64,000 bases of DNA from the NCBI GenBank assembly GCA_036375695.1, contig DASVBU010000007.1:5380-69379 (forward strand). The letters are read 5' to 3'. Both the position numbers and the translations under genes were made by a program. Source of the DNA: Acidimicrobiia bacterium (GTDB lineage Bacteria > Actinomycetota > Acidimicrobiia > Spongiisociales > ZC4RG35). Of this stretch, positions 4,968 to 57,095 are shown in pieces; the stretch's first letter is position 1; every line of letters begins with the position of its first letter. The notes under the pieces were generated by a model. The model was not told the origin of the DNA. It made no database searches and saw nothing but the letters and a program-made list of their open reading frames with translations.

Positions 4968-6203
4968 TTGACCCATCCAAGGACAGCCACTCTCCGCGAC
5001 CCCGACCTTCCCGAGCTCGCCGTCCTCCTCGGCACCGACGCGCCGCCACCCCTGACGGCCGCGGTCGAGACGCTGCAGGGCGAAGTGGCCTCCTGCCGTG
5101 TGGATCAAGTCTCCTGGTCCCCCGGCAGGAGCGTGGTGGTGCGATATCAGGTCGAGGTGCGAGGCGGCCCCCTGGACGGCACACAACAGTTCGTCGCCGC
5201 CGCCGGGCGGATCCCCCACGGGGCGATGATCATCGAGGACGACGAGGGGCGTCGCGTCGGAGTGTGGCGGTTCCCCCACGATCCGGCTCTGCCCGGTCTG
5301 CCTTCGGCGATCGACCCCGCCGCGGCCGAAGAGGTCCTGGTCGGCCTGGATGGCAAGCCCGGCCCGACCACGACCCATCTCCGCGCCTACCGACCGTCCC
5401 GCCGTGCCGTGGTGGAGGTGCGGGGACCCGAGGAGCGACTCTTCTTCAAGGTCGTCCGTCCCAACGCCATCGAGGGTCTGCACCGCATCCACCGCACACT
5501 CGCCGAAGTGTTGCCGGTGCCGGCGAGTCTCGGTTACGACGAACGGCTCGGCCTGGTGGTGCTCCAGGCGATGCCCGGTATCACGCTCCGCGAGGCCATG
5601 GCCCACCCCGACCTGCCGCTGCCCGAACCCGAGACCGTGGCCGGCCTGGTCGCCGACCTCCCCCGGCCGGACGGGCTCGACGAGGCACATTCCCCGCTGG
5701 ACCGCGCCCAGCGGGCCATCCCGATGGTCATGAGGATCTGCCCCGAGCTCACCGAGCGTCTCGAACGGCTGGCCGAAGGGATCGGCTCCGAGACCCTGCC
5801 CGCCGACCGCCCGGTCCACGGGGACTACTACGAGGCCCAGTTGATGGTCGATGACGGGAAGATCCTCGGGATCCTGGACGTCGACACCTACGGCCTGGGG
5901 CGAGCCGCAGATGACCCTTCCACGATGCTCGCCCATCTCTCGGTGTGGGGGCCCATCAGCCCCCGGCCCGAACGGGTGAGGGAGTACGGAAGCACCCTGG
6001 TGCGGCTGTGGGACTCCGTGGTCGATCCGGTGGACCTCCGTCGCCGCGCCGCGGCGATGTCGTTGCTCCTCGCCACCGGGCCGTTCCGGGTGCAGTCGCG
6101 CAACTGGCCTGACGAAGTCGCGGCGCGGGTGGCCATCGCCGAAACGTGGGTGGAGAGCGCACTGCGGATGGATGAGAGAACTCTCATCCCCTTCTCAGAT
6201 TGA
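4968..6203 (+). CDS. Phosphotransferase-family protein (APH/ChoK-like kinase fold)
   Basis: 411 aa. 'PVHGDYYEAQLMV' and 'LGILDVDTYGLG' are the Brenner motif and DxxxxxG of aminoglycoside/choline kinase-like phosphotransferases. The start codon is TTG. Confidence 0.55.
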   Translation: MTHPRTATLRDPDLPELAVLLGTDAPPPLTAAVETLQGEVASCRVDQVSWSPGRSVVVRYQVEVRGGPLDGTQQFVAAAGRIPHGAMIIEDDEGRRVGVWRFPHDPALPGLPSAIDPAAAEEVLVGLDGKPGPTTTHLRAYRPSRRAVVEVRGPEERLFFKVVRPNAIEGLHRIHRTLAEVLPVPASLGYDERLGLVVLQAMPGITLREAMAHPDLPLPEPETVAGLVADLPRPDGLDEAHSPLDRAQRAIPMVMRICPELTERLERLAEGIGSETLPADRPVHGDYYEAQLMVDDGKILGILDVDTYGLGRAADDPSTMLAHLSVWGPISPRPERVREYGSTLVRLWDSVVDPVDLRRRAAAMSLLLATGPFRVQSRNWPDEVAARVAIAETWVESALRMDERTLIPFSD

Positions 6204-42218: not shown

Positions 42219-42632
42219 TCATGGCTTCTCCACCGGTAGTCCCTCTCTCTTCCAAGCCTCGATCCCACCCGAGAGATGACCGAGGTCGCGGTAGCCCAGG
42301 GTCCACAACGTGGACGCAGCCAGGGCCGACCGCTCCCCCGACGAGCAGTAGAGGATGAGGCGGCGACGGTGGTCGAACTCCACCCGATGACGGTGATCCG
42401 CAGGGTCCGCCCAGAACTCGAGCATTCCCCGCGGGGCCCACACCGAGTCAGGGATCCAGCCTGAGACCCTGAGCTCGTCCTCCTCGCGCACGTCGACGAG
42501 AACCGCACCGTCCGACAACTCGCCCCGGACCTCCTGGGGAGACAGGCTCACCAGGTGCCGACTGGCGTCCTCCACCAGTTCGGCTGCCGTTCTGCCGGCT
42601 CTCTCTTCTCCCGTCGACACGGTCCGGACCAT
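42219..42632 (-). CDS. Rhodanese-domain sulfurtransferase
   Basis: 137 aa. The active-site loop is 'LILYCSSGERSALAA', followed by 'GYRDLGHLSGGIEAW'. Confidence 0.8.
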   Translation of the reverse strand: MVRTVSTGEERAGRTAAELVEDASRHLVSLSPQEVRGELSDGAVLVDVREEDELRVSGWIPDSVWAPRGMLEFWADPADHRHRVEFDHRRRLILYCSSGERSALAASTLWTLGYRDLGHLSGGIEAWKREGLPVEKP

Positions 42633-42707
42633 GAATCACGCCGCTGGTACGACTCTGGGAGCCCCCTGGCCACCGCTACCAGCAGATTCCCAGTGGCAGA
42701 TGACACG

Positions 42708-45700
42708 GTGATTCGGGACGCAGGGGTAGAGCCAAGGAGAGTAAGAATCGCCACTGTGAGGTACCGGGCGTTGGGCCCGATCACAGTCGAGGTCGACGGC
42801 CATGCCTCGAGACTCGGCGGTCACCGCCAACGGATCGTTCTGGCGGTACTCCTCAGCCGTGCCAATCAGGTGGTGGCGCAGGACACCCTGATCGACGCCG
42901 TGTGGAGCGGCGAGCCGCCCGAGGCGGCCAGGGCCACCCTGCAGAGCTACATCTACAACCTCCGCCGAGCCACCAAGAGCGACCTCATCCTCCGCCGCGG
43001 CGACGGATATCTGATCGAGGCCGACGCCGGGAGCTTCGACGTGCTCGACTTCACGGCCAAGCTGGAGCAGGGCCGTTCGCTCCTCGCCACCAATCCGGGG
43101 GCGGCCAGGGAGGAGCTCGCAGACGCCCTCGGCCTCTGGTACGGAGCGCCGTACGGCGGGGTGGACCATCTCGAGCTCCACTCCGAGATCCAACGCCTCG
43201 ACGAGATGCGGGTGAACGCAGTCGAGGCGCGGATCCAGGCAGATCTGGCGCTGGGACGGGACGGGGAGCTGGTGGGCGAGCTGGACGCCCTCGTCCGCGA
43301 GTACCCGCTCCGGGAGCGGTTCTGGGGACAGTTGATGCTCGCCCTCTACCGATCCGGGAGGCAGGCCGAGGCACTCCGCACTTTCCAGCAGGCACGCGCC
43401 CGACTGGTCGACGAACTGGGGATCGAGCCCGGGGCCGAACTGCAGGAGCTCGAGGATCGAATCCTGGCTCAGGACCCCTCGCTCCTCCCCGATCGTTCGT
43501 CGAACCCTCACAAGATGGATGCCGGTTCGCTTCGTGGGTACGAATTGCGAGAGGTCCTCGCATCCACCGCTCTGGGTGTGGCCTATCGCGCCTACCAACA
43601 CTCGGTGGGCCGGGAGGTGGTCGTCAAGTCGATCCGGCCCGAGTTCGCCAACGACACGGCATTCGTCGCCCGCTTCGAGAAGGAGGCACAGACGGTCGCA
43701 GCGCTGGGCCACCCGCACATCCTCCCCTTGCACGACTATTGGAGGGACCCGAGTGGTGCCTATCTGGTCGTGCCGTTCATGGCCGGCGGCAGCCTGGCCC
43801 ATTCCCTCCGGGCCCAGCACTGGCACCTGGAGCCGGCGATGCGATTGCTCGACCAGATCGGCGGCGCCCTCGGCCACGCCCATCGCCGGGGAGTGATCCA
43901 CGGGCACCTGACCGCGTCCAGCGTCGTCCTCGACGACGAGGGAAACGCCTATCTGGGGGACTTCGGCATCGGGCTGGCTCCCGACGGCGGTCTTCCGACC
44001 GTGCTCACGGATGTCGAGGCCCTGGGCAGGCTGGCCCTTCACCTGCTCACCGGGGAGCCACCCCGGGGCCAGCCCGACACGACCGGCCTCCCGGCCGGGT
44101 TCGGCGAGGTCGTCGCCCGCGCCGTCGCCGCATCGCCCGGCCGCTATTCCCGGGTGTCCGACTTCCTCCGAGACCTCAGGCGGGCTGCCGGCATGGACGT
44201 GTCCACGGGATCGGATCTGGTCGAGCCACGCGGCGAGCCCATCCGTAACCCGTACAAGGGGCTCCGTGCCTTCACCGAGATGGACGCGGCCGACTTCCAC
44301 GGCCGCGCCGAACTCGTCGGACATCTCCTGCAGACGATCTCCGAGCAGAGGCTGGTCACGATCGTGGGGCCTTCGGGGAGCGGGAAGTCCTCGGTGGTCC
44401 GGGCAGGCGTGGTGCCGTCCTTGCGCGCCGGGGCGTTGGCGGGATCCCAGGACTGGCTGATCACCGACATGTTCCCCGGCTCCTACCCGTTCGAAGAGCT
44501 CGAGGCAGCCCTGCGCCGTGTGTCGGTGCGAGGCGCAGACGACATCATGAGTGAGCTGACCGCACCGACGGGGTTGCTCCGCGTCTGCAAGAGGATCCTC
44601 CCCGAGGACTCGATGCTGCTCCTCATCATCGACCAGTTCGAGGAGCTGTTCTCGCTGGTGCGCTCCGAGGAGGTCAGGCGCACCTTCATCGACAACCTCA
44701 TCGCGGTGGCGGACGACGAGCGGGGTCGGATACGCGTCGTCACCACCATCCGGGCCGACTTCCTCGATCGACCACTCTCCTACGGCGACTTCGCAGCAGC
44801 CATCGCCCCCGGGCTGGTGACAGTCGGGCCACCGGCCCGTGACGGCCTCGCCCAGTCGATCGCCGCCCCGGCACGTGCCGTCGGCCTCGAGCTGGAACCG
44901 GGTCTGGTCACCCAGGTCGTCGCCGACGTGGAGGGCCAACCGGGCGCTCTGCCACTTCTCCAGTACGCGCTCACGGAGACCTTCGCCGCCCGGGAAGGAG
45001 GCACGCTGACCTTCGCCGCCTACGAGTCGACCGGTGGCGTGGCCGGGGCGATCGGGCGACGAGCCGAAGAGCTGTACCAGGACCTGAGCCCTGTCGCCCG
45101 GGAGGTGGCGAGGGAGGTCTTCCTCCGTCTGGTCGCGGTCGACGAAGTCGGAGTGGTGACGCGCAAACGCGCCCGCCAGAACGACCTGACATCGCTGGCC
45201 GTGGATCGGGCGGCCCTGCAGAAGGTGCTCGACGCCTACGCCCGGTTCCGCCTCATCAGCTTCGACCGGGACCCGGTGACCCGAGGTCCGACCGTGGAGG
45301 TCGCCCACGAGGCGCTGCTGACCACGTGGCCGAGGCTGGAGACCTGGATCGACGACGCCCGGGAGACCCTCGTCATGGCCAGACGGGTCGGGGAGTCCGC
45401 CCACGACTGGGTCGCGTCCGACAAGGACCCCAGCTACCTGCTCCGCGGCTCGCGTCTCGACGACATCGAGCGATGGTCCGCCGGCCCGGGCGTGATCCTG
45501 ACCGGCGACGAGGAGGACTTCATCACCGCCAGCGTCATCACCCGCAACGAGGAGATCGCGGCCGGGCGCCGCCGCCGCCGCCGAGCGCTGACGACCCTGT
45601 CCGTGGGGATGGTCCTGGTGAGCCTCTTCGCCATCCTGGCGTTCTTCCAGCGGCAGGCAGCCCGCCGGGAGGCGACCCTCTCCATCAGCAGGGAGCTCGC

Positions 45701-47813
45701 CGGGGCTTCCCGTCAGCTCGCCAATCCGGAGCTGGCCCTCCTGGTGGCCATGGAGGCATTCGACACTTCGATCAGGGACGGTGCGGAGCCGACACAGGAG
45801 GCGGTCAGTGCCCTGGCCCATGCCATGTTCGATTGGCGCCTGATCACACGCTACCCGGCGGCGGGTCGGCTCGGCCCGATGTCGTCCCCGGACGGATCCC
45901 GGGTGGCTGCCCAGTCTGTCGACAACCCCAGGAACGTCGTCGTGTTCGATGCGGGCGGATCCCCGCTGTCCGAGCTCGTCGGTCCGGACCTGGAGGGCAT
46001 CCAGGCCGACTCGACCGCATTCCACCCCGATGGTGAGTTGATCGCGGTCGCATACACCATCGAGGGTGCCCGGACCTATTCGGCAGTCCCGGAAGGTGAA
46101 CCGGACGTGATCTTGTTCCGGGCGTCCACCGGTGCCGAGGTGGCCCGAATCGACCTGGTCCCCATTCCGGACCAGCCGCTCGACAACGGCACGGGCGCTT
46201 TCCCGGTTTCCTTCAGCGCCTCGGGACGGCTTCTGGCACTCTCCGGCGGCACCGAAGTCGCCGTGGTGGACTGGGCCCGAGGCGAGGAGATCACCCGGAT
46301 CCGATTCGCGGGCCCGACGGGCCCTGCGACCTTCCTCGGTGAAGACACGCTCTTCGTCCCCGTGGCCTCACGAGGCTGGACGTGGTACTCGATCAGCGAG
46401 GCCCGGGAAATCGGGGCGGTCGACGTGCCGGGCATGACCGACATCGCCGCGGCCGATCCCGCCGGGCGTCGCCTAGCCCATCGCGTCGGCGAGCGGGTCG
46501 AGGTGTTGGACGCCATGACCAACGAGGTCCTCATCAGCGTGGAGGATCCCGGGATCCTGGCCCTGGCGGTCAGCCCGGACGGCGCGCGTTTCGCCTACTC
46601 CGGATACGACTCCACCATCCACGTCATCGACCTCGAGGGAGGGCGCCCCGAGATCCTTCTCGAGGGCGCCTTGTCGAACGTGATATCGATCACCTTCGTC
46701 GGCCCCGATCGACTCCTCACCAACGGCGAGAACCCGCTCATGTGGGACGTATCCATGGGCTCGGAGGCGTTCGGGTTCGCGTCGCTGTCGAGACCGCAAT
46801 GGGGGTTCCAGGTGTCACCCGACGAACGCTGGCTCGCCTACATGGTCTCCGCGAGCACCGGTCTTCCCATCTTCGACCCGGGCGACGGGGTGCGTCTCAT
46901 CGACCTCGCCTCGCATGACGAGGTCCTGGCCATCGAGGGAGAGCTCCAGAGCGTCCCGATCGGGCTCAGGATGGTGAGCCCCGACTTCACCCTGTTCGGG
47001 TCGCTCCGGGAGGACATGTCGTCCAGCTTGAGGCTCCTGCCCTCCTGGGATCCCGTCGTGGAGTTCGAGCGCTGCCGGGCTGCGCTCGCGTTCTCACCGG
47101 ACAGCACCCGGGTCCTCCTGTCGGGATCACTGTGCCCGGAAGAGCCCGATGGCGCCCCCAACACCGAACTGATCGACCTGGAGACGGGCGAGACGGTGCT
47201 CACCCTGCCCTACTCGTACACCTTCTCAGCCGAGCTGAACCCCGAAGGAACCTTCGAGGCCGGGCGCTATCTCGTCGCCACCGACCAGGACACCGTGGGC
47301 GTCTGGGACACCCACACCGGCGAGCAGTTGGTCGCCCTGGACCCCCCACCCAGCTGGGAGTACGTCCTCGTGGTGAGCTTCGACTCCAGCGGGCGGCGCA
47401 TCGTTGGTGGTACGACTGCAGGGACGGTCTGGGTCCTGGACCTCGCCGCCGTGGTCGAGGGCGCCACGACCGATGAGGCACTGGTGTTCACCAGACAGGC
47501 CCACTCGGGTGCCACCCCAGGCCCGGCCGTGGGCCCCCAGGGGATCGTGGCGTCCCCGGGGTTCGATGGCCTGATCCGGATCTGGGACGTGGATACGGGT
47601 GCCCTTCTCTTCGAGTACGAAGCGGACATGACGACGCCGTATGTCCGGTTCTCCACCGACGGGAGCAGGCTGTTCTATCCCCATGGGCTCAGCATCAGGC
47701 AGATGCCTGTCGACCCCTACGAGCTCCGTGCATTGGCGGGCGAGTTGGTCACTCGGGACTTCCTCCCCGACGAGTGCGAGAGGTACTCCCGCGACCCGTG
47801 CGAACAGGGCTGA
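42708..47813 (+). CDS. Giant multidomain signalling protein: SARP (wHTH + BTAD) - degenerate Ser/Thr kinase - STAND P-loop NTPase - WD40 beta-propeller
   Basis: About 1700 aa. The N-terminus 'YRALGPITVEVDG..RQRIVLAVLL...LIDAVW' is wHTH, and the BTAD carries 'ELHSEIQRLDEMRV...ALYRSGRQAEALRTFQQAR..L..ELGIEP'. The kinase-like region has 'VVVKSI', 'HPHILPL', 'HRRGVIHGHLTASSVVL' (the HRD Asp is replaced) and 'LGDFGIG'. The STAND region has 'PYKGLRAFTEMDAADFHGR' and the Walker A 'GPSGSGKSS'. The C-terminal repeats include 'LIRIWDVDTGALLFEYE'. The start is uncertain: the ATG at 42555 overlaps the rhodanese gene, so GTG 42708 is proposed. Confidence 0.8.
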   Translation: MIRDAGVEPRRVRIATVRYRALGPITVEVDGHASRLGGHRQRIVLAVLLSRANQVVAQDTLIDAVWSGEPPEAARATLQSYIYNLRRATKSDLILRRGDGYLIEADAGSFDVLDFTAKLEQGRSLLATNPGAAREELADALGLWYGAPYGGVDHLELHSEIQRLDEMRVNAVEARIQADLALGRDGELVGELDALVREYPLRERFWGQLMLALYRSGRQAEALRTFQQARARLVDELGIEPGAELQELEDRILAQDPSLLPDRSSNPHKMDAGSLRGYELREVLASTALGVAYRAYQHSVGREVVVKSIRPEFANDTAFVARFEKEAQTVAALGHPHILPLHDYWRDPSGAYLVVPFMAGGSLAHSLRAQHWHLEPAMRLLDQIGGALGHAHRRGVIHGHLTASSVVLDDEGNAYLGDFGIGLAPDGGLPTVLTDVEALGRLALHLLTGEPPRGQPDTTGLPAGFGEVVARAVAASPGRYSRVSDFLRDLRRAAGMDVSTGSDLVEPRGEPIRNPYKGLRAFTEMDAADFHGRAELVGHLLQTISEQRLVTIVGPSGSGKSSVVRAGVVPSLRAGALAGSQDWLITDMFPGSYPFEELEAALRRVSVRGADDIMSELTAPTGLLRVCKRILPEDSMLLLIIDQFEELFSLVRSEEVRRTFIDNLIAVADDERGRIRVVTTIRADFLDRPLSYGDFAAAIAPGLVTVGPPARDGLAQSIAAPARAVGLELEPGLVTQVVADVEGQPGALPLLQYALTETFAAREGGTLTFAAYESTGGVAGAIGRRAEELYQDLSPVAREVAREVFLRLVAVDEVGVVTRKRARQNDLTSLAVDRAALQKVLDAYARFRLISFDRDPVTRGPTVEVAHEALLTTWPRLETWIDDARETLVMARRVGESAHDWVASDKDPSYLLRGSRLDDIERWSAGPGVILTGDEEDFITASVITRNEEIAAGRRRRRRALTTLSVGMVLVSLFAILAFFQRQAARREATLSISRELAGASRQLANPELALLVAMEAFDTSIRDGAEPTQEAVSALAHAMFDWRLITRYPAAGRLGPMSSPDGSRVAAQSVDNPRNVVVFDAGGSPLSELVGPDLEGIQADSTAFHPDGELIAVAYTIEGARTYSAVPEGEPDVILFRASTGAEVARIDLVPIPDQPLDNGTGAFPVSFSASGRLLALSGGTEVAVVDWARGEEITRIRFAGPTGPATFLGEDTLFVPVASRGWTWYSISEAREIGAVDVPGMTDIAAADPAGRRLAHRVGERVEVLDAMTNEVLISVEDPGILALAVSPDGARFAYSGYDSTIHVIDLEGGRPEILLEGALSNVISITFVGPDRLLTNGENPLMWDVSMGSEAFGFASLSRPQWGFQVSPDERWLAYMVSASTGLPIFDPGDGVRLIDLASHDEVLAIEGELQSVPIGLRMVSPDFTLFGSLREDMSSSLRLLPSWDPVVEFERCRAALAFSPDSTRVLLSGSLCPEEPDGAPNTELIDLETGETVLTLPYSYTFSAELNPEGTFEAGRYLVATDQDTVGVWDTHTGEQLVALDPPPSWEYVLVVSFDSSGRRIVGGTTAGTVWVLDLAAVVEGATTDEALVFTRQAHSGATPGPAVGPQGIVASPGFDGLIRIWDVDTGALLFEYEADMTTPYVRFSTDGSRLFYPHGLSIRQMPVDPYELRALAGELVTRDFLPDECERYSRDPCEQG

Positions 47814-47944
47814 GAAGATCGCGAAACAAAATCGTCGATCCCACTTGCACGCCGGCTTCGGGATCTGATACAAATCCGCTGTCTGGCCGATGGGTTCTTC
47901 GGAATTCGTCGGCCAGACACTTTTTTGTCTCCCCTCTTCCCCGC

Positions 47945-48628
47945 TCAGCGGTCCCGGCGGAGCAGTGTCCGTATCGCCGAGTTCTTCCACAGGTTGGACA
48001 CGTACTTCCAGTGACGCTTCCGGTCCACCAGTTGAGCCGTCATCTCCACCTTCGGCTCGGCGACCCCGAAGTGGCCGGCGACCTGGCTCAGCGTGTGGTT
48101 CCAGATCTTGTCCTCCAGCCGCGAGGTGTAGATCTTGAAGCTCACCTCGTACAGCGGGTCGTTGGCGCGGACCAGGAGATGGATCCGGGCGACCGTGACA
48201 CCCTCGTCGTCCTCATGGGCGCTGAATGTGATGATGGCCGCCCAGGGATGACCCTCCGGCGTCATGTACGACCAGGAACGCTCGTCGGCGTAGATCACAC
48301 GGACGCCGGTCGTCACCCGGGTCGGCCCCTTGCCGCCGCCGATGACGGCGATCTCACCGGGGGCGATGCCGCCGGCCGGGGCGTAGAACTTGTTCGACGG
48401 GTACCAGAAGTCCCCGAACTTCGTCTTCCAGGTCGCGATCACCTCTTCCGGCGTCGGGCCCGGGATCCTGACCTCGTAGGTCTTCTGCCAGAGCTGGCCG
48501 AATCCTTGCAGCGGACCCACCGGGCGACGTCCCTCGACGTTGCCGGTCGGTGCCCCCTCGGGGACTTCCCCGAGACGGAACGCATCCACGGGCTTGGCCC
48601 AGTTGTCGGCGTTGATCGGTTCCGCCAT
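47945..48628 (-). CDS. Hypothetical protein (possibly DUF1990-like)
   Basis: 227 aa from ATG 48628 (MAEPINADNW...). The resemblance to DUF1990 is weak. The longer ORF in the track has an Arg-rich N-terminus that is probably not coding. Confidence 0.4.
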   Translation of the reverse strand: MAEPINADNWAKPVDAFRLGEVPEGAPTGNVEGRRPVGPLQGFGQLWQKTYEVRIPGPTPEEVIATWKTKFGDFWYPSNKFYAPAGGIAPGEIAVIGGGKGPTRVTTGVRVIYADERSWSYMTPEGHPWAAIITFSAHEDDEGVTVARIHLLVRANDPLYEVSFKIYTSRLEDKIWNHTLSQVAGHFGVAEPKVEMTAQLVDRKRHWKYVSNLWKNSAIRTLLRRDR

Positions 48629-48678
48629 ACGTGTCCTTTCGACACCACCGATCTTGCCGGGCACGCGTTCCGCGATCG

Positions 48679-49812
48679 TTACGACCGGATCCAGACACCG
48701 GCGGACACCGGCTGAACCGTTTCGGCCACCACGTCCCTCCATCCCGTGGCGATGTCGTCGGGGTCGACGCGGGAGCGGAGCGAGCGTGCGAAGGCGTCGG
48801 TCACCTTCCAGGCGTCGTAGCGGGCCCGGTTGAATCGGCGGTCGATGGCGCCCTGAACGCGCCTTCGGAGAGGGTTGAAGAGCGCCGCCACCGCCAGGGT
48901 GGAGGCGGCAACCGCCAGGGACGAATCCGTCGGCATCATCGACCCGATCACGGTCACGACTCCTACGAAGACCAGACCGAGGAGGCCCACCACCAGCAGG
49001 TAGGTGACGGTGCGGGAGACGATCTTGTCGATGTCGTAGAGACGGTATTTGAGGACCGATATCCCGATCGCGATCGGGAGGCCGAGGATGGCGGCCCCTG
49101 TCAGCAGGTCCCAAACGAACATGGGGACCGGGATCAGGTCGGCCAGCGTCTCCTGGATCGCGGTGGTGACGATCATGGCGAAGACCGCGAAGGCGAACCA
49201 CTTGATCTGCTGCCGCTCCAGATGACGGGCGTTGATCCATCTCGACACGAGCGAGAGCGCGGCGAGGACCACGAATATCGCCAGCACCAGATACCCGGCC
49301 GTGGAGAGTGGCCCGTGCTCCGGGTTGGGGATCCAGGAGATGCCGATCGGGTTATCCGCCCAGACGAGACACGAGCCATCCCCGGCGGTCTCCATGCAGA
49401 TGCGACCGGCGACGACATAGCTCGCGGCCAGCAGCCCGATACCCGCCCCGACCCAGCCGAGAAAGCCCCATCTACTCGAGGCAGGCCTCCCGTCGGGGAA
49501 CCAGTAGACCAGGAGCCCGACGAGCACGAACCAGGAGAGCCAAACCGCGCCACCGATCGCCCCCGCCAGCGCGTTGCCTCCCTTTGCCAGGTCGTCGAGG
49601 ACACCGCTGCTGAGGAGGAACACGCCGATGCCGGTCATCACCCAGCCGACGCGGTTGCCGTCTGTCCGGTAGAGGATCAGAGCGCCGACGACCGCGAAGA
49701 CCAGAGCTGCCAGACCGAGCAGGACCTCACCGGGCTCCTCCGCATCCGAGATCGCCATCGCGCTCAGGGCGGCCGCCCCGGAGACCAGGGCCAGCGAGGA
49801 GGCGACCCTCAC
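48679..49812 (-). CDS. Membrane protein resembling a histidine-kinase sensor/linker region without a kinase core (paralog 1)
   Basis: 377 aa with about 8 TM helices. The C-terminus 'VLKYRLYDIDKIVSRT...NPLRRRVQGAIDRRFNRARYDA...VAETVQPVSAGVWIRS' ends where HisKA_3 would normally begin. Confidence 0.6.
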   Translation of the reverse strand: MRVASSLALVSGAAALSAMAISDAEEPGEVLLGLAALVFAVVGALILYRTDGNRVGWVMTGIGVFLLSSGVLDDLAKGGNALAGAIGGAVWLSWFVLVGLLVYWFPDGRPASSRWGFLGWVGAGIGLLAASYVVAGRICMETAGDGSCLVWADNPIGISWIPNPEHGPLSTAGYLVLAIFVVLAALSLVSRWINARHLERQQIKWFAFAVFAMIVTTAIQETLADLIPVPMFVWDLLTGAAILGLPIAIGISVLKYRLYDIDKIVSRTVTYLLVVGLLGLVFVGVVTVIGSMMPTDSSLAVAASTLAVAALFNPLRRRVQGAIDRRFNRARYDAWKVTDAFARSLRSRVDPDDIATGWRDVVAETVQPVSAGVWIRS

Positions 49813-49828
49813 ACCGACGGATCTGCGC

Positions 49829-50179
49829 TCAGACTGCGGCGAGGGCGGCCTCCTCGTCGTCGAAGACCTCGATGGCCTCGTCGATGCGAGTGAGTGCGAG
49901 GATCTGGCGATAGTGGTCGGTCAGACCGCACGCCAGGAGCCGGTGCCCGCTCCGCTGCGCCCGGATCAGCGTCGTGACGAGCAACCCGATACCGCCACTG
50001 TTCATGTACTGGAGGCCCTCGAAGTTGAGGATGACGGCGTCGACGCCGCCTGCCGAGGCCTCCTCGTGCGCCCTGGTGATCTCGGCCTCGGAGAAGGCCG
50101 TGATCTCGCCCACGATGTCGACGGCGCGGACGCGTGGCGCCAGTTCTCGTACGGTCATCGTCACATTGGCGGATGGCAT
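49829..50179 (-). CDS. STAS-domain anti-sigma-factor antagonist
   Basis: 'VDIVGEITAFSEAEI...AVILNFEGLQYMNSGGIGLLVTTL...LLACGLTDHYRQILALTRIDEAIEVF' is the SpoIIAA/RsbV fold pattern. The start is chosen at the internal ATG (MPSANV). Confidence 0.7.
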   Translation of the reverse strand: MPSANVTMTVRELAPRVRAVDIVGEITAFSEAEITRAHEEASAGGVDAVILNFEGLQYMNSGGIGLLVTTLIRAQRSGHRLLACGLTDHYRQILALTRIDEAIEVFDDEEAALAAV

Positions 50180-50189
50180 TGGTCTCCTC

Positions 50190-50534
50190 TCACCGGGCCG
50201 CGACCGCGGCCTCTTCGTCGTCATGGATCGTCATGAAGTCGGCCAGACGGGTGATGGTGAACACCTCGCGGTAGTGGTCCGACAGTCCGAATGCGTGGAT
50301 CTCCCGCTCCTCGGCGCGGGCCCTCGCCAGCAGTCCGACGATGACCGCGATCCCGGTGGAGTTGATGTAGTCCACGCCCCGGAAGTCCAACACCACGCGT
50401 CCCGGCCGGCTGGTCGCCTCGGCGTAGGCCGCCTCGAGGGTCTCCTTGGCGCCACGGTCCACGGTGCCCACGAGGGTCACGACACTTCCGTCGTCGAGTG
50501 GCGCCGTCGTGGCCCGAAACTCGCTGTCCATCAC
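50190..50534 (-). CDS. STAS-domain anti-sigma-factor antagonist
   Basis: 114 aa. 'VTLVGTVDRGAKETL...VVLDFRGVDYINSTGIAVIVGLL...HAFGLSDHYREVFTITRLADFMTIH'. Confidence 0.75.
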   Translation of the reverse strand: MMDSEFRATTAPLDDGSVVTLVGTVDRGAKETLEAAYAEATSRPGRVVLDFRGVDYINSTGIAVIVGLLARARAEEREIHAFGLSDHYREVFTITRLADFMTIHDDEEAAVAAR

Positions 50535-52111
50535 AGCGCTCCCTTCCTCTTCACGATCAGCTCCACCGTGTGGGTGCGACCGTCGCTGGTGGAGCGGACC
50601 TCGTCGACCATCTTCTCGATCAGGAACAGGCCCCAGCCGCGAGGTGTCTGGGTGCCGGCGAGCTTCGCCTCGAGATCCGGGGTCTGCGCCTCGGGTATCT
50701 CCTTCGCCCCGCCCTGGTCGGTGACGCGAATCGTCAGGACCTCGTCCGTGGCCCTGACCTCGACCCCCACCTCGAGTTCGGGGCGGTTCTCGTTGCCGTG
50801 CTCGATGGCGTTCATCACCGTCTCGGCGAGGGCTGTCTTGAGACGCTCGACGTCCCGTTCCTCGAACCCGAGCGGGGCGACCACCTCCGCCAGACGGGCA
50901 ATGGCGACGCGCTCGTTCCCCTCCTCGCTGGCGACCGTGAAGGCGTCCAGCAGCTCACCGCTCTCGAAGGCCAGCGCCGAGTCCTGGGCCGAGCTCGACC
51001 GACGCACCACCACCAGCGTGATGTCGTCTTCCTGCTCCGCGTCGGGACCGGTGAAGGCCTCCAGGTCGCTGACCACCGCCGTGACCATGTCGTCCGACCG
51101 CCGGGCCACGCGGGACATCAGCCTCCCGAAGCCGTACATCTCGCCTCTGGGGTCGTGGGCCTCGGTGATCCCGTCGCTCGTCAGGACCATGATCTCGCCC
51201 GAGCCCATGGTGTAACGCTTCTCCTCGTAGTCCATGCCGGGCATGAGGCCGAGGGGCATCCCTGCGGCGCGGATCTCGACGACGCCGTCGGAGGTCTGCA
51301 TGTAGGGGAGGTTGTGGCCGGCGTTGGCCAACACGACGTCGCCACGCTCCGTGTCGATGATGGCGTACAGACACGTGACGAACATCGCCGCCGGGATCTC
51401 GGGGACCAGGGCGTCGTTGACCTCGGCGAGGACCTGTGAGGGTGACCCGTGCCGCTGCGCCGCGGCCCGCAGCATCGACCGGCAGGTGGCCATGACCAAT
51501 GCCGCGGGCACACCCTTGTCGGTGACGTCGCCGATGACCACGCCGAGCCGGCCGTCGCCCAGGGGGATGAAGTCGTAGAAGTCCCCGCCCACGGCCCGGG
51601 CGGGGCGATAGAAGGCGCTGACGTGCCAACCGGGGATCGCCGGCAGCTCCTTCGGGAGCAGGGTCTGCTGGATCAGGGCGGCGACCTTGAGCTCCTGCTC
51701 GATCCGCTCCCGCTCCTTGGCCTCGGCCTGCTGCTCCCGGATCAGTTGGGCGACCCGCATCGCCGGCGCCACCTGGGCGGCGAGACCACCGAGGAGCCTG
51801 CGGTCGTCGCTCGAGTACGGCTGGTCGGAGAGACGGGGCCCGAGATAGAGGGCGCCGAGGAGCTCTCCCTGGCCGATGAGGGGGACGATGAGCTCGACTC
51901 CCGCGGAGCGGATGGTCTCCAGCGTCGGAGAGACGAGCTCCAGGTCGCCGACGCCCACCGGTCCGCCCGCGGACAAGAGGACAGTCTCGAGGGGGTCGCC
52001 CGACGGGATGGGGATCGGGTCGAGCAGGGTCGTCGGCGTCACGGGCCCCTTGCCTACGGATGTCTGCCCGTTCTCGGCCCGGCGCCGTCGCAATCTCTGA
52101 AGCATCGTCAC
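50531..52111 (-). CDS. GAF - PP2C(SpoIIE) phosphatase - HATPase_c (RsbW-like kinase) fusion protein
   Basis: 526 aa. The N-terminus is GAF-like ('GELLGALYLGPRLSDQPYSSDDRRLLGGLAAQVA'), the middle is a SpoIIE phosphatase ('GGDFYDFIPLGDGRLGVVIGDVTDKG', 'VLTSDGITEA'), and the C-terminus is a GHKL ATPase ('AETVMNAIEHGN', 'TPRGWGLFLIEKMVDEV'). Confidence 0.8.
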   Translation of the reverse strand: MTMLQRLRRRRAENGQTSVGKGPVTPTTLLDPIPIPSGDPLETVLLSAGGPVGVGDLELVSPTLETIRSAGVELIVPLIGQGELLGALYLGPRLSDQPYSSDDRRLLGGLAAQVAPAMRVAQLIREQQAEAKERERIEQELKVAALIQQTLLPKELPAIPGWHVSAFYRPARAVGGDFYDFIPLGDGRLGVVIGDVTDKGVPAALVMATCRSMLRAAAQRHGSPSQVLAEVNDALVPEIPAAMFVTCLYAIIDTERGDVVLANAGHNLPYMQTSDGVVEIRAAGMPLGLMPGMDYEEKRYTMGSGEIMVLTSDGITEAHDPRGEMYGFGRLMSRVARRSDDMVTAVVSDLEAFTGPDAEQEDDITLVVVRRSSSAQDSALAFESGELLDAFTVASEEGNERVAIARLAEVVAPLGFEERDVERLKTALAETVMNAIEHGNENRPELEVGVEVRATDEVLTIRVTDQGGAKEIPEAQTPDLEAKLAGTQTPRGWGLFLIEKMVDEVRSTSDGRTHTVELIVKRKGAL

Positions 52112-52116
52112 GATGT

Positions 52117-53277
52117 CTACTCCCCCATCGTCCCGGAACCGTTACGGAGCCAGACGCCCACCGAGGCCGGCTGCATCGTCTCCGACACCACACCGACCCA
52201 TCCGTCGACCACCTCCGGCCCGTCCACCTTGTCCTGCAACGATCCCACGAAACGCTCCACGACCTGAACCGCGTCGTAGCGTGATCGGTTGAATCGGCGG
52301 TCCACCCAACTCTGGACACGACGCCTGACCGGGTTGAAAGAACCGGCCACCGCCAGGGTCGAACCGGCCACCGCCAGGGGGCTCTCGGTGGGCAGGATGG
52401 AAGACAGGGCGGTCACCCCGACGAAGAACAGGGCTGCGAGGAGCCCCACAACGATCACATACGACACGGTCCGGGAGAGGATCCGGTCGATCTCGTACAG
52501 CCGGTACCGGACGATGGCCACCCCGATCGACACGGGTATGGCCCAACCTCCCACCAGCACCCACAAGTCGGTGGCGATGGAATTCTCGGGGAGGACCTGG
52601 CCGAGGGCGCTGTCCAACACGAAGACGAGCCCACCGAGGAGCAACCACCGGTACTGCTGACCTTCGACACCCGAGCTCCCGCGGGCGCGGGCGAACAACC
52701 TCAGGAGAGCCAGAGCGCCCAAGAGAACGATGAGGAAGAAGCCGGACTCGTTGGTGATCACGGCCAGACCCGCAAGGCCGGGCACGGCGAGAGGGCTGGG
52801 CCGGCCCGTGTCGTACATGGGCTCGGGACTGATCGTGAATCCGAGCACGGCCCAGAGGGCGACCAGGATGAGCAACCTCCCCAGCCGGGCCTCCCACCGC
52901 GTGGCGTAGGCCCCGGTGGGGAAGGTGTTGAGAAGGGCGACGATGACGATCCAGGGCACTATGCCGAGCACCGTGTAGGCCAACTCCACCCACGGGCCGA
53001 TGGCTGGACGGACGTCGTACACGAAGGCCTGCAACCCGAACGCCAGGCCCATGATCGCGCCCACGCCGAGGGACAGTCGCCCGATGCGGTTGCCGGGCCT
53101 CTGCGTCAGGATCATCCACCCCGCGATCGGCCAACCCAGCCAGTACAGCGGGAACCAGCCGCCGGAGACGGCGTTGGCCAGGGGGCCTCGTCGGGTGGCG
53201 AGGACCATGCCCGCCAGGCTGGCCAGGGCGACCAGGGTCACCAGCGACCGCCGCAGATCCCAGCGCGCCCTCTTCAT
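52117..53277 (-). CDS. Membrane protein resembling a histidine-kinase sensor/linker region without a kinase core (paralog 2)
   Basis: 386 aa with about 8 TMs. The C-terminus 'IVRYRLYEIDRILSRT...NPVRRRVQSWVDRRFNRSRYDA...VSETMQPASVGVWLRN' is homologous to 48679..49812. Confidence 0.6.
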   Translation of the reverse strand: MKRARWDLRRSLVTLVALASLAGMVLATRRGPLANAVSGGWFPLYWLGWPIAGWMILTQRPGNRIGRLSLGVGAIMGLAFGLQAFVYDVRPAIGPWVELAYTVLGIVPWIVIVALLNTFPTGAYATRWEARLGRLLILVALWAVLGFTISPEPMYDTGRPSPLAVPGLAGLAVITNESGFFLIVLLGALALLRLFARARGSSGVEGQQYRWLLLGGLVFVLDSALGQVLPENSIATDLWVLVGGWAIPVSIGVAIVRYRLYEIDRILSRTVSYVIVVGLLAALFFVGVTALSSILPTESPLAVAGSTLAVAGSFNPVRRRVQSWVDRRFNRSRYDAVQVVERFVGSLQDKVDGPEVVDGWVGVVSETMQPASVGVWLRNGSGTMGE

Positions 53278-53404
53278 CCTGGTACGTGGTGGTTCATGTC
53301 GTAGACCCCACCCTCACCATCGTCCGTTACGGAATCGCTACCACCATGGCGTTCCGGTCAGCCACATCGAAGCAGCACCCGTAACGGTGGGTTAGGTTGC
53401 TGCC

Positions 53405-56113
53405 GTGCTCGACGTCAACCTACTAGGGACTCCGGAGGCCCTGGTCGACGGGAAGCCGATCAGGGTCGACACCACCAAGGCGATCGCCCTCCTGGCCTAC
53501 CTGGTGGTGGAACGCACCGCGCGGAGGGACACCCTGGCCGCGCTCCTCTGGGCGGATTCGTCACAGGAACGTGCCCGGGCGACCCTCCGTCGCACCCTGT
53601 CTGCCCTGCGCACCGCGGCGGGAGCCGACCTGATCGACTCCGATCGCAGCACCGTCACCCTCAGCGACCAGGTCGTGTCCGACTACGGCCAACTGCTCGC
53701 CGAATTGGATGCCACGACCCGGCACGACCACGCGCCAGGTGATGTTTGCCCGCTCTGCATGCCACATCTCGAGAAGGCGTCATCCCTCTATCGGGGCGAC
53801 TTCCTCCAGGGATTCGCCGTCCGGTCCGCCCCCGAGTTCGAGCACTGGTCCCGAAACGTGGCCCAGGCACTCCAGATCCGCATGTCCGGCGTCTTCGAGA
53901 GACTGGCCTCCGGCCTCGCCGCCTCCGGGGACTTCGACGCCGCCTCCGCGACCGTGGTGCGGTGGATCGAACTCGACCCACTCCACGAGCCGGCCTATCG
54001 CCTCCTCATGCTGCTCCGGGCCTGGGCGGGCGACCGGCCCGGCTCCATCGACGCCTACCGGGAGTGCGTCGCCGTGCTCGACCGCGAGTTGGCCGTGCCA
54101 CCACTCGAGGAGACCACGGAGTTGTACGAGGCGATCCTCGACGAGGACCTCCCGCCACCGCCCGGTGCCCGGAGGCGGGTGAGGCAGGCGGACTCCAAGC
54201 AGGCTCCCGTCCCCCCGGGTCTCATCGATCGGCAAGCCGAGTTGCAGAGCCTCCGGGGCGCGCTCGACGCCGCCCGGGAAGGAGGTCAGGTCGTGGCGAT
54301 GACAGGAGCACCATGGATGGGCAAGACCCGGCTCGCAGACGAGCTCATCGCCGCGGCGTCGGACCGCTGGACCGTCCTGGCCGGACGCGGTTACCGGATG
54401 GAGCAGGACCTTCCATACGGCGTGGTGACACAGCTCCTCCGGCCCGCGATCGAACGCATCGAGGAGGCCGGGCTCCCGGCATGGGTGATCGGAGAGCTGG
54501 CCCGCCTGCTGCCCGGTCTCGGTCGGGCCGGCATCGCCGACCCGTACGGCGAGAGCAGGTTGCTCGAGGCCATCCACGCCGCCGTGGGAGCTCTGGCAGC
54601 CGGCCGACCCCTGCTCATCGTGGTCGACGACGCCCATTGGGCGGATTCGTCATCGGCGGCCGTGCTCGCTTTCGTCGCCCGCCGCACGAAGGGGTTGCCC
54701 GTCCTCGTCCTCGTCCTGGCGCGAGAAGGCGAGGCCCCGCCTGCCGAGCTGGCGGACCTCATGTCCACCGCAGACGTGAGGATCTCGCTCCAGCCCCTCA
54801 CGGTGACCCAGCTGCTCCCGTTGGTGGGGAACGACGCGACGGCAGCACGGGACCTCGAGCTCCGCACCGGCGGGATCCCCCTCCTCGCGGCCGAGGCCCT
54901 CGCCTCCGGTGACGGCACATCGACACCCGGTTTGACCCGTTATCTGGAGACGAGGTGGAACGAACTGGGTGACCTGGAGCGACAACTCCTCACCGCCGCG
55001 GCCGTTCTCGGCGGGACCTGTGATCCCGGGTTGCTCCGGGACACCAGTGGGCGCTCTGAGGAAGAGGTCGTGGAGGGGGTGGAGAGGCTGACTGCCTTGG
55101 GGCTCCTCCGCGAGACGGCCGACGGAATCGGCTTCACCCTGGATGCGATGGAGCGGTTGGCATACGAGTCCGCATCCCTGGTTCGGCGCCGTCTGCTCCA
55201 TGGCCGCGCCGGCGATGCGCTGGCAGCCCGGCCCGACGTGCAGCGTGACGTCGCCGCCGCCGCGTCGGTCGCAGCGCAATACCAGGCCGCCGCTCGACCC
55301 GAGGCCGCGACCTGGTACCTCCTCGCCGGGGACCTCGCCCGAGCCGTCTACGCCCACGACATGGCCCGCCACTTCTACGAGTCGGCCCTGGCCCTGGGGA
55401 CGAACCGGGTGGCCGAAGCGAGACTGGCGATCGCGGAGCTCGACATGGCGGCCGGCCGATACGAGGAGGCTCGACGACAGCTCACCCTGGCGGGTCCTTC
55501 GGCCGGTGACCTCTCCGGGGTGATCCTGCATCGACTCGGTGACGTCGAGCGTCTCCTCGGCCGTTTCGACTCCGCCGAGGACCTGTATCGGTCGGCCCTG
55601 GACTCGGGCGCCGCCGAAGTGGCCCTGTTCTCCGACTGGGCGCTCCTCGCCATGCGCACCGGCAGGCAAGCCGTGGCCGTCGAGTTGGCCGAGAGGGCAC
55701 GCGCCTCGGCGGAGGAAGGAGGCAGCGACCTGGAACGCTCCCGGGTGCGCAGCATCCTCGCCGCGGTGACCACCGACCCGGGTACCGCCCTGGCCCATGC
55801 GGAGGCGGCCGCCGAGCTCGCCGGCGAGGACGAGGTCCTGCTCATGGCGGCGCTCAACAGCCAGGCGCTCGTCCTCGCCGAGCGCGGCGACCACGACCGC
55901 GCCGGCACGGTCCTGGAGCAGGCTATTGCCATCGCCCAACGGACCGGCCACCGGCATCGCGAGGCCGCGCTGTGGAGCCATCTCGGCGACATCCATCACC
56001 GTGCCGGCCGGGAGGACGAGGCCCGCCGGGCGCAGACACGGGCCGTGTCGATGTTCGCCGACATCGACGCCGGAGGGTTCGAGCCCGAGCTCTGGCTGCT
56101 CACCCGTTGGTGA
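53405..56113 (+). CDS. AfsR-like SARP-family regulator (wHTH/BTAD + AAA/NB-ARC-like ATPase + TPR-like C-terminus)
   Basis: 902 aa. The N-terminus 'LLGTPEALVDGKPIRV..KAIALLAYLVV...LLWAD' is followed by a BTAD ('LRAWAGDRPGSIDAYRECVAVLDRELAVPP'), the Walker A 'MTGAPWMGKTRLADEL', the Walker B 'LLIVVDDAHWAD', and a helical repeat C-terminus. Confidence 0.8.
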   Translation: MLDVNLLGTPEALVDGKPIRVDTTKAIALLAYLVVERTARRDTLAALLWADSSQERARATLRRTLSALRTAAGADLIDSDRSTVTLSDQVVSDYGQLLAELDATTRHDHAPGDVCPLCMPHLEKASSLYRGDFLQGFAVRSAPEFEHWSRNVAQALQIRMSGVFERLASGLAASGDFDAASATVVRWIELDPLHEPAYRLLMLLRAWAGDRPGSIDAYRECVAVLDRELAVPPLEETTELYEAILDEDLPPPPGARRRVRQADSKQAPVPPGLIDRQAELQSLRGALDAAREGGQVVAMTGAPWMGKTRLADELIAAASDRWTVLAGRGYRMEQDLPYGVVTQLLRPAIERIEEAGLPAWVIGELARLLPGLGRAGIADPYGESRLLEAIHAAVGALAAGRPLLIVVDDAHWADSSSAAVLAFVARRTKGLPVLVLVLAREGEAPPAELADLMSTADVRISLQPLTVTQLLPLVGNDATAARDLELRTGGIPLLAAEALASGDGTSTPGLTRYLETRWNELGDLERQLLTAAAVLGGTCDPGLLRDTSGRSEEEVVEGVERLTALGLLRETADGIGFTLDAMERLAYESASLVRRRLLHGRAGDALAARPDVQRDVAAAASVAAQYQAAARPEAATWYLLAGDLARAVYAHDMARHFYESALALGTNRVAEARLAIAELDMAAGRYEEARRQLTLAGPSAGDLSGVILHRLGDVERLLGRFDSAEDLYRSALDSGAAEVALFSDWALLAMRTGRQAVAVELAERARASAEEGGSDLERSRVRSILAAVTTDPGTALAHAEAAAELAGEDEVLLMAALNSQALVLAERGDHDRAGTVLEQAIAIAQRTGHRHREAALWSHLGDIHHRAGREDEARRAQTRAVSMFADIDAGGFEPELWLLTRW

Positions 56114-56159
56114 GATCCGCGTTTGCGTCGAACACCTGTTCGGGTATGGTGTCCCGGTC

Positions 56160-57095
56160 ATGGGTGACCTGCGCTGGAGAGGCCCCAACGAGGGCGGCCT
56201 GTTCGAATTGAGTCGACGCGTCCCGGGCCGGGGCGCCTATCGGGGTCTGACCTTCCACGAGGTGGAGGCGCAGACGATCCTCAACCGTGTCGACGCCCCG
56301 AACCTCCCGTTCGGCTGGACGATCAACCCCTATCGGGGCTGCAGCCACGCCTGCGTCTACTGCTTCGCCCGTCCCACCCACGAGTATCTGGGTCTGGGCA
56401 TCGGGCGGGAGTTCGAGACCGAGATCGTGGTCAAGATCAACGCGGTCGAGTTGACCCGGGCGGAGACCGCCCCGGGCCGATGGGCCGGGGAGCACATCGC
56501 GATGGGGACCAACACCGATCCCTATCAGCCCGCCGAGGGCAAGTATCGGCTGACGCGGGGCATCCTCGAAGTGCTGGTCGAGCGTCGCAACCCGTTCGGC
56601 ATGCTCACCAAGTCGACGCTGGCGCTTCGCGACCTCGACCTCTTCGTCGAGGCCTCACGTCACACCGAGGTATCGGTGAGCTTCTCCATCGGCACCCTCG
56701 ACCCCGAGGTGTGGAGGGAGACCGAGCCGGGCACACCCCACCCCATGCGGCGGGTGGAGGCCATCGCCAAGCTCAGCGAGGCCGGCGTGCGCACCGGGGT
56801 CCTCATAGCACCCATCATCCCCGGCCTCTCGGACCATCCCGACCAGGTGGCGGCGGTGGAGGCCGCCTGTCGGGAAGCGGGAGCCGGCTCGATCTCCACG
56901 ATCAAGCTCCATCTCCGCCCCGGCGTAAAGGAGCACTTCATGGGCTGGCTCGGTGACACCCATCCCGAGCTGGTGGCCCGCTACGAGGCCCTGTATCGCA
57001 ACCGGGCCTACCTGTCCCGGGGGACCTCCCGCCGCAGGCCCCCGAGGGAACGAAACAAGCCGGCGGCGTTCCAGCCCTCCCTCCCACTGGGCTGA
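56160..57095 (+). CDS. Radical SAM protein, SplB/DNA-repair-photolyase-like (COG1533)
   Basis: 'INPYRGCSHACVYCFARP' carries the CxxxCxxC radical-SAM motif in the SplB-family context. Confidence 0.7.
   Translation: MGDLRWRGPNEGGLFELSRRVPGRGAYRGLTFHEVEAQTILNRVDAPNLPFGWTINPYRGCSHACVYCFARPTHEYLGLGIGREFETEIVVKINAVELTRAETAPGRWAGEHIAMGTNTDPYQPAEGKYRLTRGILEVLVERRNPFGMLTKSTLALRDLDLFVEASRHTEVSVSFSIGTLDPEVWRETEPGTPHPMRRVEAIAKLSEAGVRTGVLIAPIIPGLSDHPDQVAAVEAACREAGAGSISTIKLHLRPGVKEHFMGWLGDTHPELVARYEALYRNRAYLSRGTSRRRPPRERNKPAAFQPSLPLG

Follow-up and report, generated by a model that had tools for sequence, protein, structure and literature searches.

The minus strand of a 64,000-nucleotide (nt) stretch of contig DASVBU010000007.1 from an Acidimicrobiia bacterium (contig positions 5,380 to 69,379; hereafter the window, whose own numbering is used throughout) carries a packed cluster of signalling genes, in which a PP2C-type phosphatase and an RsbW/SpoIIAB-like kinase are joined in one polypeptide, the fusion, accompanied by two STAS proteins and by two kinase-less membrane paralogs, memA and memB. 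Our main finding is that the GAF domain at the head of the fusion is divided between genes, its first helix and first strand being encoded at the ends of memA and memB. For the system as a whole we propose, at a little short of an even chance, a multi-input partner-switching phospho-switch in which the tails of the membrane proteins complete the GAF of the fusion. The genes and segments concerned are the following (aa, amino acids).

52117-53277, minus strand: memA, membrane sensor-like protein, 386 aa, about 10 transmembrane segments, probably HisKA_7TM-related, without kinase domains
52141-52554, minus strand: putative C-terminal coupling module of memA, residues ~242-379, whose last ~28 residues (52141-52224) correspond to GAF helix alpha1 and strand beta1
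50531-52111, minus strand: the fusion, 526 aa, made up of a short basic N-terminal peptide, a truncated GAF (residues ~30-125, 51737-52024), a helical linker to residue ~151, PP2C/SpoIIE and HATPase_c_2
50190-50534, minus strand: STAS1, 114 aa (Pfam STAS, E value 2e-12)
49829-50179, minus strand: STAS2, 116 aa (Pfam STAS, E 3e-13)
48679-49812, minus strand: memB, second membrane paralog, 377 aa
47945-48628, minus strand: small protein of the START/SRPBCC fold, 227 aa, with a weak likeness to DUF1990; its gene closes the operon

A GAF domain cut between two genes

A preliminary description of this stretch had read the central gene as a GAF-PP2C-HATPase fusion; the PP2C and HATPase parts stand, but the GAF is not complete. 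Alone, the fusion matches the Pfam family GAF (PF01590) only at 57-132 of the 133 profile positions (in one search, residues 46-118 against 59-132), and by this partial match its 'GAF' is only the C-terminal two thirds of such a domain, truncated at the N-terminus. A search with the first 135 residues of the fusion against 1.84 billion representative proteins returned, among its matches, single-chain relatives with about 400 extra N-terminal residues. One of these, P0353 (1008 aa), has Pfam matches to GAF at 461-586 (profile 1-130), to SpoIIE and to HATPase_c_2; memA residues 242-377 align to its residues 347-486 with 41% identity, and fusion residues 31-523 to its residues 495-1007 with 50% identity. 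A second, P0267, aligns with memA over nearly the full length of the latter, up to P0267 residue 442, and has its GAF match at 408-547 (profile 1-133). A profile of the mem family further identified at least 11 full-length representatives in which the mem C-terminus is followed within 0-29 residues by a fusion-like GAF remainder. Because the two halves are contiguous in these single-chain relatives, memA and the fusion together correspond to one protein of ancestral type, cut after the first GAF strand; judged from these alignments, this is a gene fission inside a domain, with the cut in the beta1-beta2 loop of the GAF.

The mem tail (…EVVDGWVGVVSETMQPASVGVWLR) corresponds to GAF helix alpha1 and strand beta1, and memB ends in the same alpha1/beta1 tail (...VAETVQPVSAGVWIRS, then stop). 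In the GAF fold beta1 is an inner strand, and a GAF without it should not be stable. When a mem tail was placed ahead of the fusion head in a chimera, the GAF profile match grew to positions 12-132 with the tail of memA and to 15-132 with that of memB. An AlphaFold2 (AF2) model of the fusion alone shows no sheet in the invariant core of the GAF (residues 79-119), where its predicted local distance difference test score (pLDDT) is below 50. Outside the catalytic motifs, no stretch of the fusion is more invariant than the GAF remainder. All 83 related loci that we assembled (80 obtained by scanning species-representative genomes with the alignment of the fusion, and three found earlier) are in the split state. 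Since the rest of the GAF is encoded at the ends of memA and memB, the membrane proteins are probably physical parts of the sensor and not mere neighbours of it.

The GAF remainder is also met in another setting: giant proteins of 1,500-3,950 aa (P0241, P0281, P0304, P0342, P0343 and others) contain 5-18 tandem stretches that resemble it.

The family of membrane paralogs

The preliminary description had the module bracketed by kinase-less membrane paralogs, and this is confirmed. memA and memB are 38% identical overall (E 1e-50) and 56% identical in their tails. The transmembrane segments of memA were counted by reading its translation, and a domain search found no HisKA or HATPase domain after the membrane region of either protein. 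Neither has a Pfam match of its own, and 30 of 47 sampled members of the family match HisKA_7TM (PF16927) weakly, at E values up to 1 (best 1.2e-8). The family consists of a large set of stand-alone proteins of about 375 aa and of near-constant length (370-390 aa), and 229 mem domains occur in the 83 loci, with 0-10 copies per locus, often in tandem. Across 169 full-length paralogs, mean identity is 48.5% in the C-terminal module as against 23.7% in the N-terminal transmembrane part, and of 240 mem domains that reach the end of the profile, 225 stop no more than 20 residues later, including copies, such as memB, that are not followed by a fusion gene. A variable N-terminal part with a conserved tail is the pattern that would be expected of variable sensors sharing one docking partner. 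An apparently longer member, P0081 (543 aa), was rejected as an N-terminal mis-call.

The phosphatase-kinase fusion and the STAS proteins

Pfam places SpoIIE at residues 186-371 of the fusion (50999-51556; E 4e-51) and HATPase_c_2 at residues 399-518 (50558-50917; E 2e-19); the kinase domain resembles SpoIIAB (E 8e-15) and RsbW (E 3e-12) in NCBIfam, with PDB matches to both, and the closest solved structure to the fusion is Rv1364c (E 1e-16), in which PP2C and kinase are contiguous. Homologues with 68-86% identity to the window protein were aligned, first 16 sequences and then 48. Neither alignment shows any variation in the core residues of the PP2C motifs GGDFYD, GDVTDKG and TSDGITEA, and EDDITLV is invariant among the 16 and nearly invariant among the 48. 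The metal-binding residues D177/D180, D195/D198 and D313 are invariant in the larger set; D362/D363 are nearly so there and invariant in the smaller. The kinase motifs ETVMNAIEHGN (N box), DxGG (G1) and RGWGLFL (G2) likewise keep invariant cores among the 48 homologues, with E430, N434, H438, D465, G467 and R491-L497 all invariant. These domain matches and conserved motifs bear out the earlier proposal that phosphatase and anti-sigma-type kinase sit in one polypeptide; it would have fallen had proper alignment shown the PP2C or HATPase motifs to be absent. The AF2 model is confident for both enzymatic domains and predicts a helix over residues 101-151, ahead of the PP2C. No receiver domain was found in the fusion by Pfam or NCBIfam searches, and its architecture is not the receiver-PP2C-kinase arrangement of HsbR and CrsR. 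The fusion family is abundant, with at least 8,000 matches in the fusion search.

Split-form fusions start with a conserved basic amphipathic peptide (MVQLMRRRR, MSAWPQSIARVIRR, MTTLTRSFRRRLLGR, MATLLQSMKRIW; loci L001-L083; 52076-52111 on the minus strand of the window), which a Pro/Ala/Glu-rich linker separates from the GAF remainder. This peptide is absent from the single-chain relative P0353, and it may be a membrane or partner anchor.

STAS1 and STAS2 are 45% identical to one another, and each retains a candidate phospho-acceptor serine: Ser59 in STAS1 (codon 50358-50360), with N-S-T-G-I kept in 72 of 73 orthologues, and Ser61 in STAS2 (codon 49997-49999), with N-S-x-G-I kept in all 83. 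The two antagonists that had been announced thus both carry the phosphorylatable residue for which a check had been advised. PP2C, RsbW/SpoIIAB-like serine kinase and two STAS proteins together make up what is, by domain content, a core of the partner-switching type. Apparent STAS1-STAS2 fusions in related loci (open reading frames, ORFs, of 170-226 aa) proved to be over-extended ORFs and were set aside.

Organization of the operon

The window has a G+C content of about 68%, and the nearest relatives of its proteins come from Acidimicrobiia metagenome-assembled genomes. An ORF check recovered every gene of the preliminary description at its coordinates and on the minus strand, as well as the 4-nt overlap of fusion and STAS1 (50531/50534). 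The remaining intergenic gaps are of 5, 10, 16 and 50 nt, the first of them separating the memA stop from the fusion start, which lie in different reading frames; a ribosome-binding site for the fusion (GGGGAG) is contained in the 3'-terminal part of memA and precedes the start by 8 nt. The longest STAS2 ORF begins at 50224, and the start at 50179 is favoured because the homologues are 116 aa long. Between the convergent gene ends beyond the last gene stands one further element.

47880-47919: GC-rich 18-bp hairpin, likely terminator

From its layout, then, the set of six minus-strand genes is one tightly packed, operon-like unit closed by a hairpin, and the overlap, the short gaps, the hairpin and the co-conservation described below all agree with the operon first suspected. 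None of the six proteins has a match in PADLOC, a search that concerned anti-phage defence, and the annotations of these proteins read only 'hypothetical' or 'SpoIIE family protein phosphatase'.

A gene set conserved in two phyla

The window proteins were mapped onto six-frame ORFs of the 83 loci, which span Acidimicrobiia, Thermoleophilia/Gaiellaceae, Kribbella/Nocardioidaceae and many Chloroflexota, including Ktedonobacter racemifer DSM 44963. The conserved order, common to Actinomycetota and Chloroflexota, is SARP regulator, 0-10 mem genes, fusion, STAS, STAS, START-fold protein and, usually, a CrtI-like flavoenzyme. Among loci with enough flank the components occur as follows.

Two or more STAS genes following the fusion: 71 of 79 loci
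Small START-fold protein: 61 of 68 loci
Adjacent CrtI/CrtO-like FAD oxidoreductase: 41 of 63 loci
At least one mem gene: 38 of 40 loci
BTAD-AAA_16-TPR regulator, usually divergent: 32 of 40 loci

Because this order recurs in 83 loci of two phyla, the arrangement is far beyond chance, and the co-conservation by which the preliminary description had proposed to judge the module is found.

The last gene of the operon had been noted as a small hypothetical; it is present, but it is not merely hypothetical, since it belongs to the co-conserved set and its product has the SRPBCC/START/Bet v 1 helix-grip fold. Its match to DUF1990 (PF09348) reaches 19.8 bits (E 9e-4), below the Pfam gathering threshold of 23 bits, and of 120 close homologues just 2 have a precomputed DUF1990 match. 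The first ~50 residues of the START-fold protein are predicted to be disordered and are nonetheless almost invariant (W10, A11, P13, F17, G29, N30, G33, R34, P36, P39, Q41-G44, W47-K49), a combination that suggests a docking segment.

The CrtI/CrtO-like FAD oxidoreductase (~475 aa), which belongs to the cluster in most lineages, directly follows the START-fold gene in L028-L083 and others; in L001-L016 it lies between STAS2 and the START-fold gene on the opposite strand, and it is inverted in Acidimicrobiia. Two conserved ORF clusters of the related loci, 'c1' and 'c3', were rejected as antisense shadows of the flavoenzyme gene. In the window tblastn found no CrtI-like flavoenzyme, and its place is taken by an unrelated gene.

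42555-47813, plus strand: SARP (Trans_reg_C + BTAD)-Ser/Thr kinase-nSTAND1 (E 7e-114)-WD40 protein, 1752 aa

This gene, one of the flanking SARP/STAND regulators to which the preliminary description had looked for the output of the module, does not belong to the conserved set and has a single weak match in the 83 loci. Elsewhere in the window, positions 24939-25538 (plus strand) resemble the kinase segment of its product (27.5% identity over 200 aa, E 2e-15).

A SARP regulator and its candidate promoter

On the other side the operon is flanked by a divergent regulator, which is the only one of the two that is co-conserved.

53405-56113, plus strand: AfsR-like SARP regulator (BTAD, AAA_16/NOD, TPR), 902 aa
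53325-53342, minus strand: candidate SARP box, GGTAGCG (53342-53336) and CGTAACG (53331-53325) with a 4-nt spacer, reading towards memA
53380-53386, plus strand: inverted heptamer CGTAACG near the SARP start codon (CGTTACG on the operon strand)

Pfam finds BTAD (E 2.5e-16), AAA_16 (E 9e-22) and TPR_12 in the regulator, and the Trans_reg_C profile was not detected in its 902 aa. Its orthologues are full-length (residues 1-902, E 1e-85 to 1e-145) and lie on the opposite strand in most loci, including those of Chloroflexota. Of 51 loci, 49 have CGTAACG or its complement within 350 nt beyond the SARP start, the background being 0.059 per 350 nt. Enrichment of a second heptamer (CGGAACG or CGGGACG) is confined to offset +11, where on average 3.34 of 6 positions match as against 1.0-2.2 elsewhere, and where 20 of 65 sites have 5 or more matches; in the Acidimicrobiia group, the window included, the partner stands instead at -11 (GGTAGCG/CGTTGCG-N4-CGTAACG). 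A -10-like hexamer follows 9 nt on in many loci, on inspection by eye, and in the window this is the weak GAGGGT (53315-53310). A scan for sigma-70-type promoters returned nothing. SARP sites are classically direct repeats of heptamers with 4-nt spacers that overlap the -35 region (PMC10972967). As the conserved heptamers with their 11-nt period match these published sites, we take the SARP regulator for an activator of the operon: the repeats look like a SARP-dependent promoter, which suggests that the regulator is the probable driver of the module, and possibly of itself too. The earlier idea that flanking SARP/STAND regulators are its output is thereby modified, as the repeats suggest a driver rather than, or besides, an output.

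The inverted heptamer at 53380-53386 is possibly an autoregulatory site; a copy in this orientation is also found in 15 other loci, nearly all of Acidimicrobiia. In the Acidimicrobiia group the heptamers form an inverted pair 55-90 nt apart. The copy that faces the SARP gene is only 19-45 nt from the annotated start, and if it is a promoter element, the transcript would be leaderless or the start mis-called. At the far end of the regulator gene, the longest reading of a radical SAM ORF (55797-57095, plus strand) overlaps the SARP 3' end by about 316 nt; its true start is probably further downstream, because the Pfam domain begins only at residue 176.

Proposed mechanism and alternatives

In the mechanism that we propose, the AfsR-like SARP regulator would bind the 11-nt-spaced heptamers and drive the operon. 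memA and memB, and elsewhere up to ten paralogs, would each sense a different membrane or extracytoplasmic cue through the variable part with its ten transmembrane segments, and their conserved cytoplasmic tail would dock on the fusion, completing its GAF fold in trans. Docking would at the same time tether the fusion to the membrane, and one transducer could serve alternative sensors, in competition or in combination. Once completed, the GAF would pass its state through the helix of about 50 residues to the switch element of the PP2C, as in RsbU-type phosphatases, and the signal would shift the balance between PP2C and fused kinase and so set the phosphorylation of STAS1 and STAS2, as in HsbR and CrsR. 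That phosphorylation state would be the output, read by a partner other than a linked sigma factor; candidate readers are the START-fold protein together with the CrtI-like flavoenzyme, the SARP regulator through its TPR domain, or a distant sigma factor held by the HATPase domain. A more general form of the proposal, that the split of the GAF is a design principle, giving up to ten membrane 'plugs' for one 'socket', with output through the STAS proteins to the START-fold, CrtI-like and AfsR-like proteins and not to a sigma factor, we consider possible but somewhat doubtful.

Several observations weigh against the proposed mechanism. We infer trans complementation from the fused relatives and from conservation only, and the gain in profile score of the chimeras is small (+3.1 bits with the memA tail, +0.8 bits with that of memB). 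The low AF2 confidence over the GAF core may be due in part to the small depth of the alignment (48 sequences, none less than 68% identical). Only 40 of 72 loci have a mem gene immediately before the fusion, and within 10 kb such genes are missing altogether from 2 of the 40 loci with full flanks. The G1 box of the kinase reads DxGG instead of DxGxG, the -10-like hexamer of the window is poor, and the output step has candidate partners only, such as the START-fold protein and the TPR part of the regulator.

Much of this would also suit a second explanation, with the same phospho-switch core and a GAF that is not completed: the mem tail would be vestigial, the stub on the fusion a degenerate helical or dimerisation element (AF2 draws it as helices), and coupling indirect or through other surfaces, perhaps with the basic N-terminal peptide, which occurs only in split forms, as the real anchor. 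The stub is, however, the most conserved non-catalytic part of the fusion, and the mem tail shows twice the conservation of the remaining protein and keeps the same end point in nearly all paralogs of both phyla, none of which is expected of vestiges. We regard this explanation as rather unlikely.

A third concerns the output only and is compatible with a split-GAF input: the module would be a canonical anti-sigma system, in which HATPase_c_2 holds a sigma factor encoded elsewhere until unphosphorylated STAS releases it, with the START-fold protein and the SARP regulator as mere co-regulated neighbours. The likeness of the kinase domain to SpoIIAB and RsbW argues for it, as does the position of Rv1364c, which belongs to the SigF network; CrsR and HsbR, too, bind RpoS encoded elsewhere (PMC6482189). 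On the other side, a jackhmmer search, seeded with hand-typed RpoD and RpoE sequences, found no ORF of the sigma-70 family in the 64-kb window, as the preliminary description had stated. With the same search, 6 of the 83 loci proved to have a sigma gene within 10 kb, in positions that differ between loci, which indicates that the method works; the co-conserved sigma factor for which orthologous loci were to be inspected must be rejected at this frequency. Four non-sigma partners are co-conserved instead, and an anti-sigma output of this kind seems to us rather unlikely.

Finally, the memA/fusion boundary might be a frameshift error, a pseudogene or a programmed frameshift, with one long membrane-GAF-PP2C-kinase protein as the real product, as the 5 nt between stop and start, the different frames and the existence of single-chain relatives might suggest; but this is very improbable, since every one of the 83 loci is split, with spacing and frames that vary, memB and some 230 further paralogs stop at one and the same residue although no fusion gene follows them, mem proteins are constant in length (370-390 aa), and the fusion has its own ribosome-binding site and conserved N-terminal peptide. 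Apparent single mem-fusion ORFs (L076, 1037 aa; L026, L051 and others) were rejected as Arg/Pro-rich out-of-frame over-extensions, and L076 has a mem gene of its own in a different frame.

Partner-switching modules are widespread, yet how they receive their signals is mostly not understood. If the proposed mechanism is right, it would be a natural case of signal integration by trans-complementation of a domain, through which one partner switch integrates many inputs, and it would explain tandem arrays of 'orphan' kinase-less sensor proteins. The system joins three classes of regulator usually studied apart, SARP/STAND, PP2C/STAS and START-fold proteins, and its presence in cultured strains (Kribbella spp., Ktedonobacter racemifer DSM 44963) makes the hypothesis directly testable.

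Comparison with known systems

A PP2C-kinase fusion with STAS partners is of a known kind, represented by HsbR/CrsR and by Rv1364c. The split GAF and the arrays of plug-bearing membrane paralogs both appear to be undescribed in the literature searched, where 'split GAF domain' gave no match and papers on HisKA_7TM and DUF1990 were uninformative; the constant linkage to genes for a START-fold protein, for a CrtI-like enzyme and for an AfsR-like regulator that has its own conserved operator likewise appears to be undescribed there.

The closest parallels in enzymatic design are HsbR-HsbA of Pseudomonas and CrsR-CrsA of Shewanella, where PP2C and a GHKL kinase/anti-sigma domain in one polypeptide set the phosphorylation of a STAS protein, and where the targets (RpoS, FlgM, HsbD) are encoded elsewhere (PMC6482189). 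Their input, however, is a receiver domain fed by a phosphorelay, whereas the window system pairs a truncated GAF with membrane proteins; they have one STAS protein, belong to other phyla, and are without linked SARP, START-fold or CrtI-like genes. Rv1364c of Mycobacterium tuberculosis (PDB 3KE6), also actinobacterial, shares the contiguous PP2C and RsbW-like kinase, but carries an N-terminal PAS and a C-terminal STAS in the same chain, in contrast to the separate, duplicated STAS proteins and split GAF described here. RsbU, RsbP and RsbZ resemble the fusion in the succession of sensor domain (GAF in RsbZ), helical linker and PPM domain, and activation of RsbU-type PPM phosphatases is proposed to pass through linker and switch helices (PMC12143880); they carry an entire sensor domain in cis, with the kinase on a protein of its own.

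The single-chain membrane-GAF-SpoIIE(-HATPase_c_2) proteins (P0353, P0267, P0341) are homologous along the whole of memA plus fusion, but have an intact GAF, whereas in the window and the 83 loci the gene is cut in the beta1-beta2 loop and its membrane half multiplied. In the Bacillus stressosome several paralogous sensors (RsbR) feed one phosphatase-controlled partner switch (PMC11821858), much as proposed here; these are soluble STAS-domain proteins of a large complex that releases RsbT, with neither a membrane domain nor a split domain. The plant PYR/PYL/RCAR receptors with their clade A PP2C offer an analogy only, since the START-fold protein is 5-17% identical to them, with no sequence relationship, and the fold is very common.

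The regulator, lastly, has the same three-part architecture as the Streptomyces SARP-NOD-TPR protein AfsR, which binds direct repeats that overlap the -35 region and for which the ligand of the TPR domain is not known (PMC10936776, PMC10972967). The similarity is weak (NCBIfam AfsR, E 5e-7, far below the cut-off) and the heptamer of the window is CGTAACG; and whereas AfsR is linked to Ser/Thr kinases such as AfsK, the window regulator is linked to a PP2C/STAS module.

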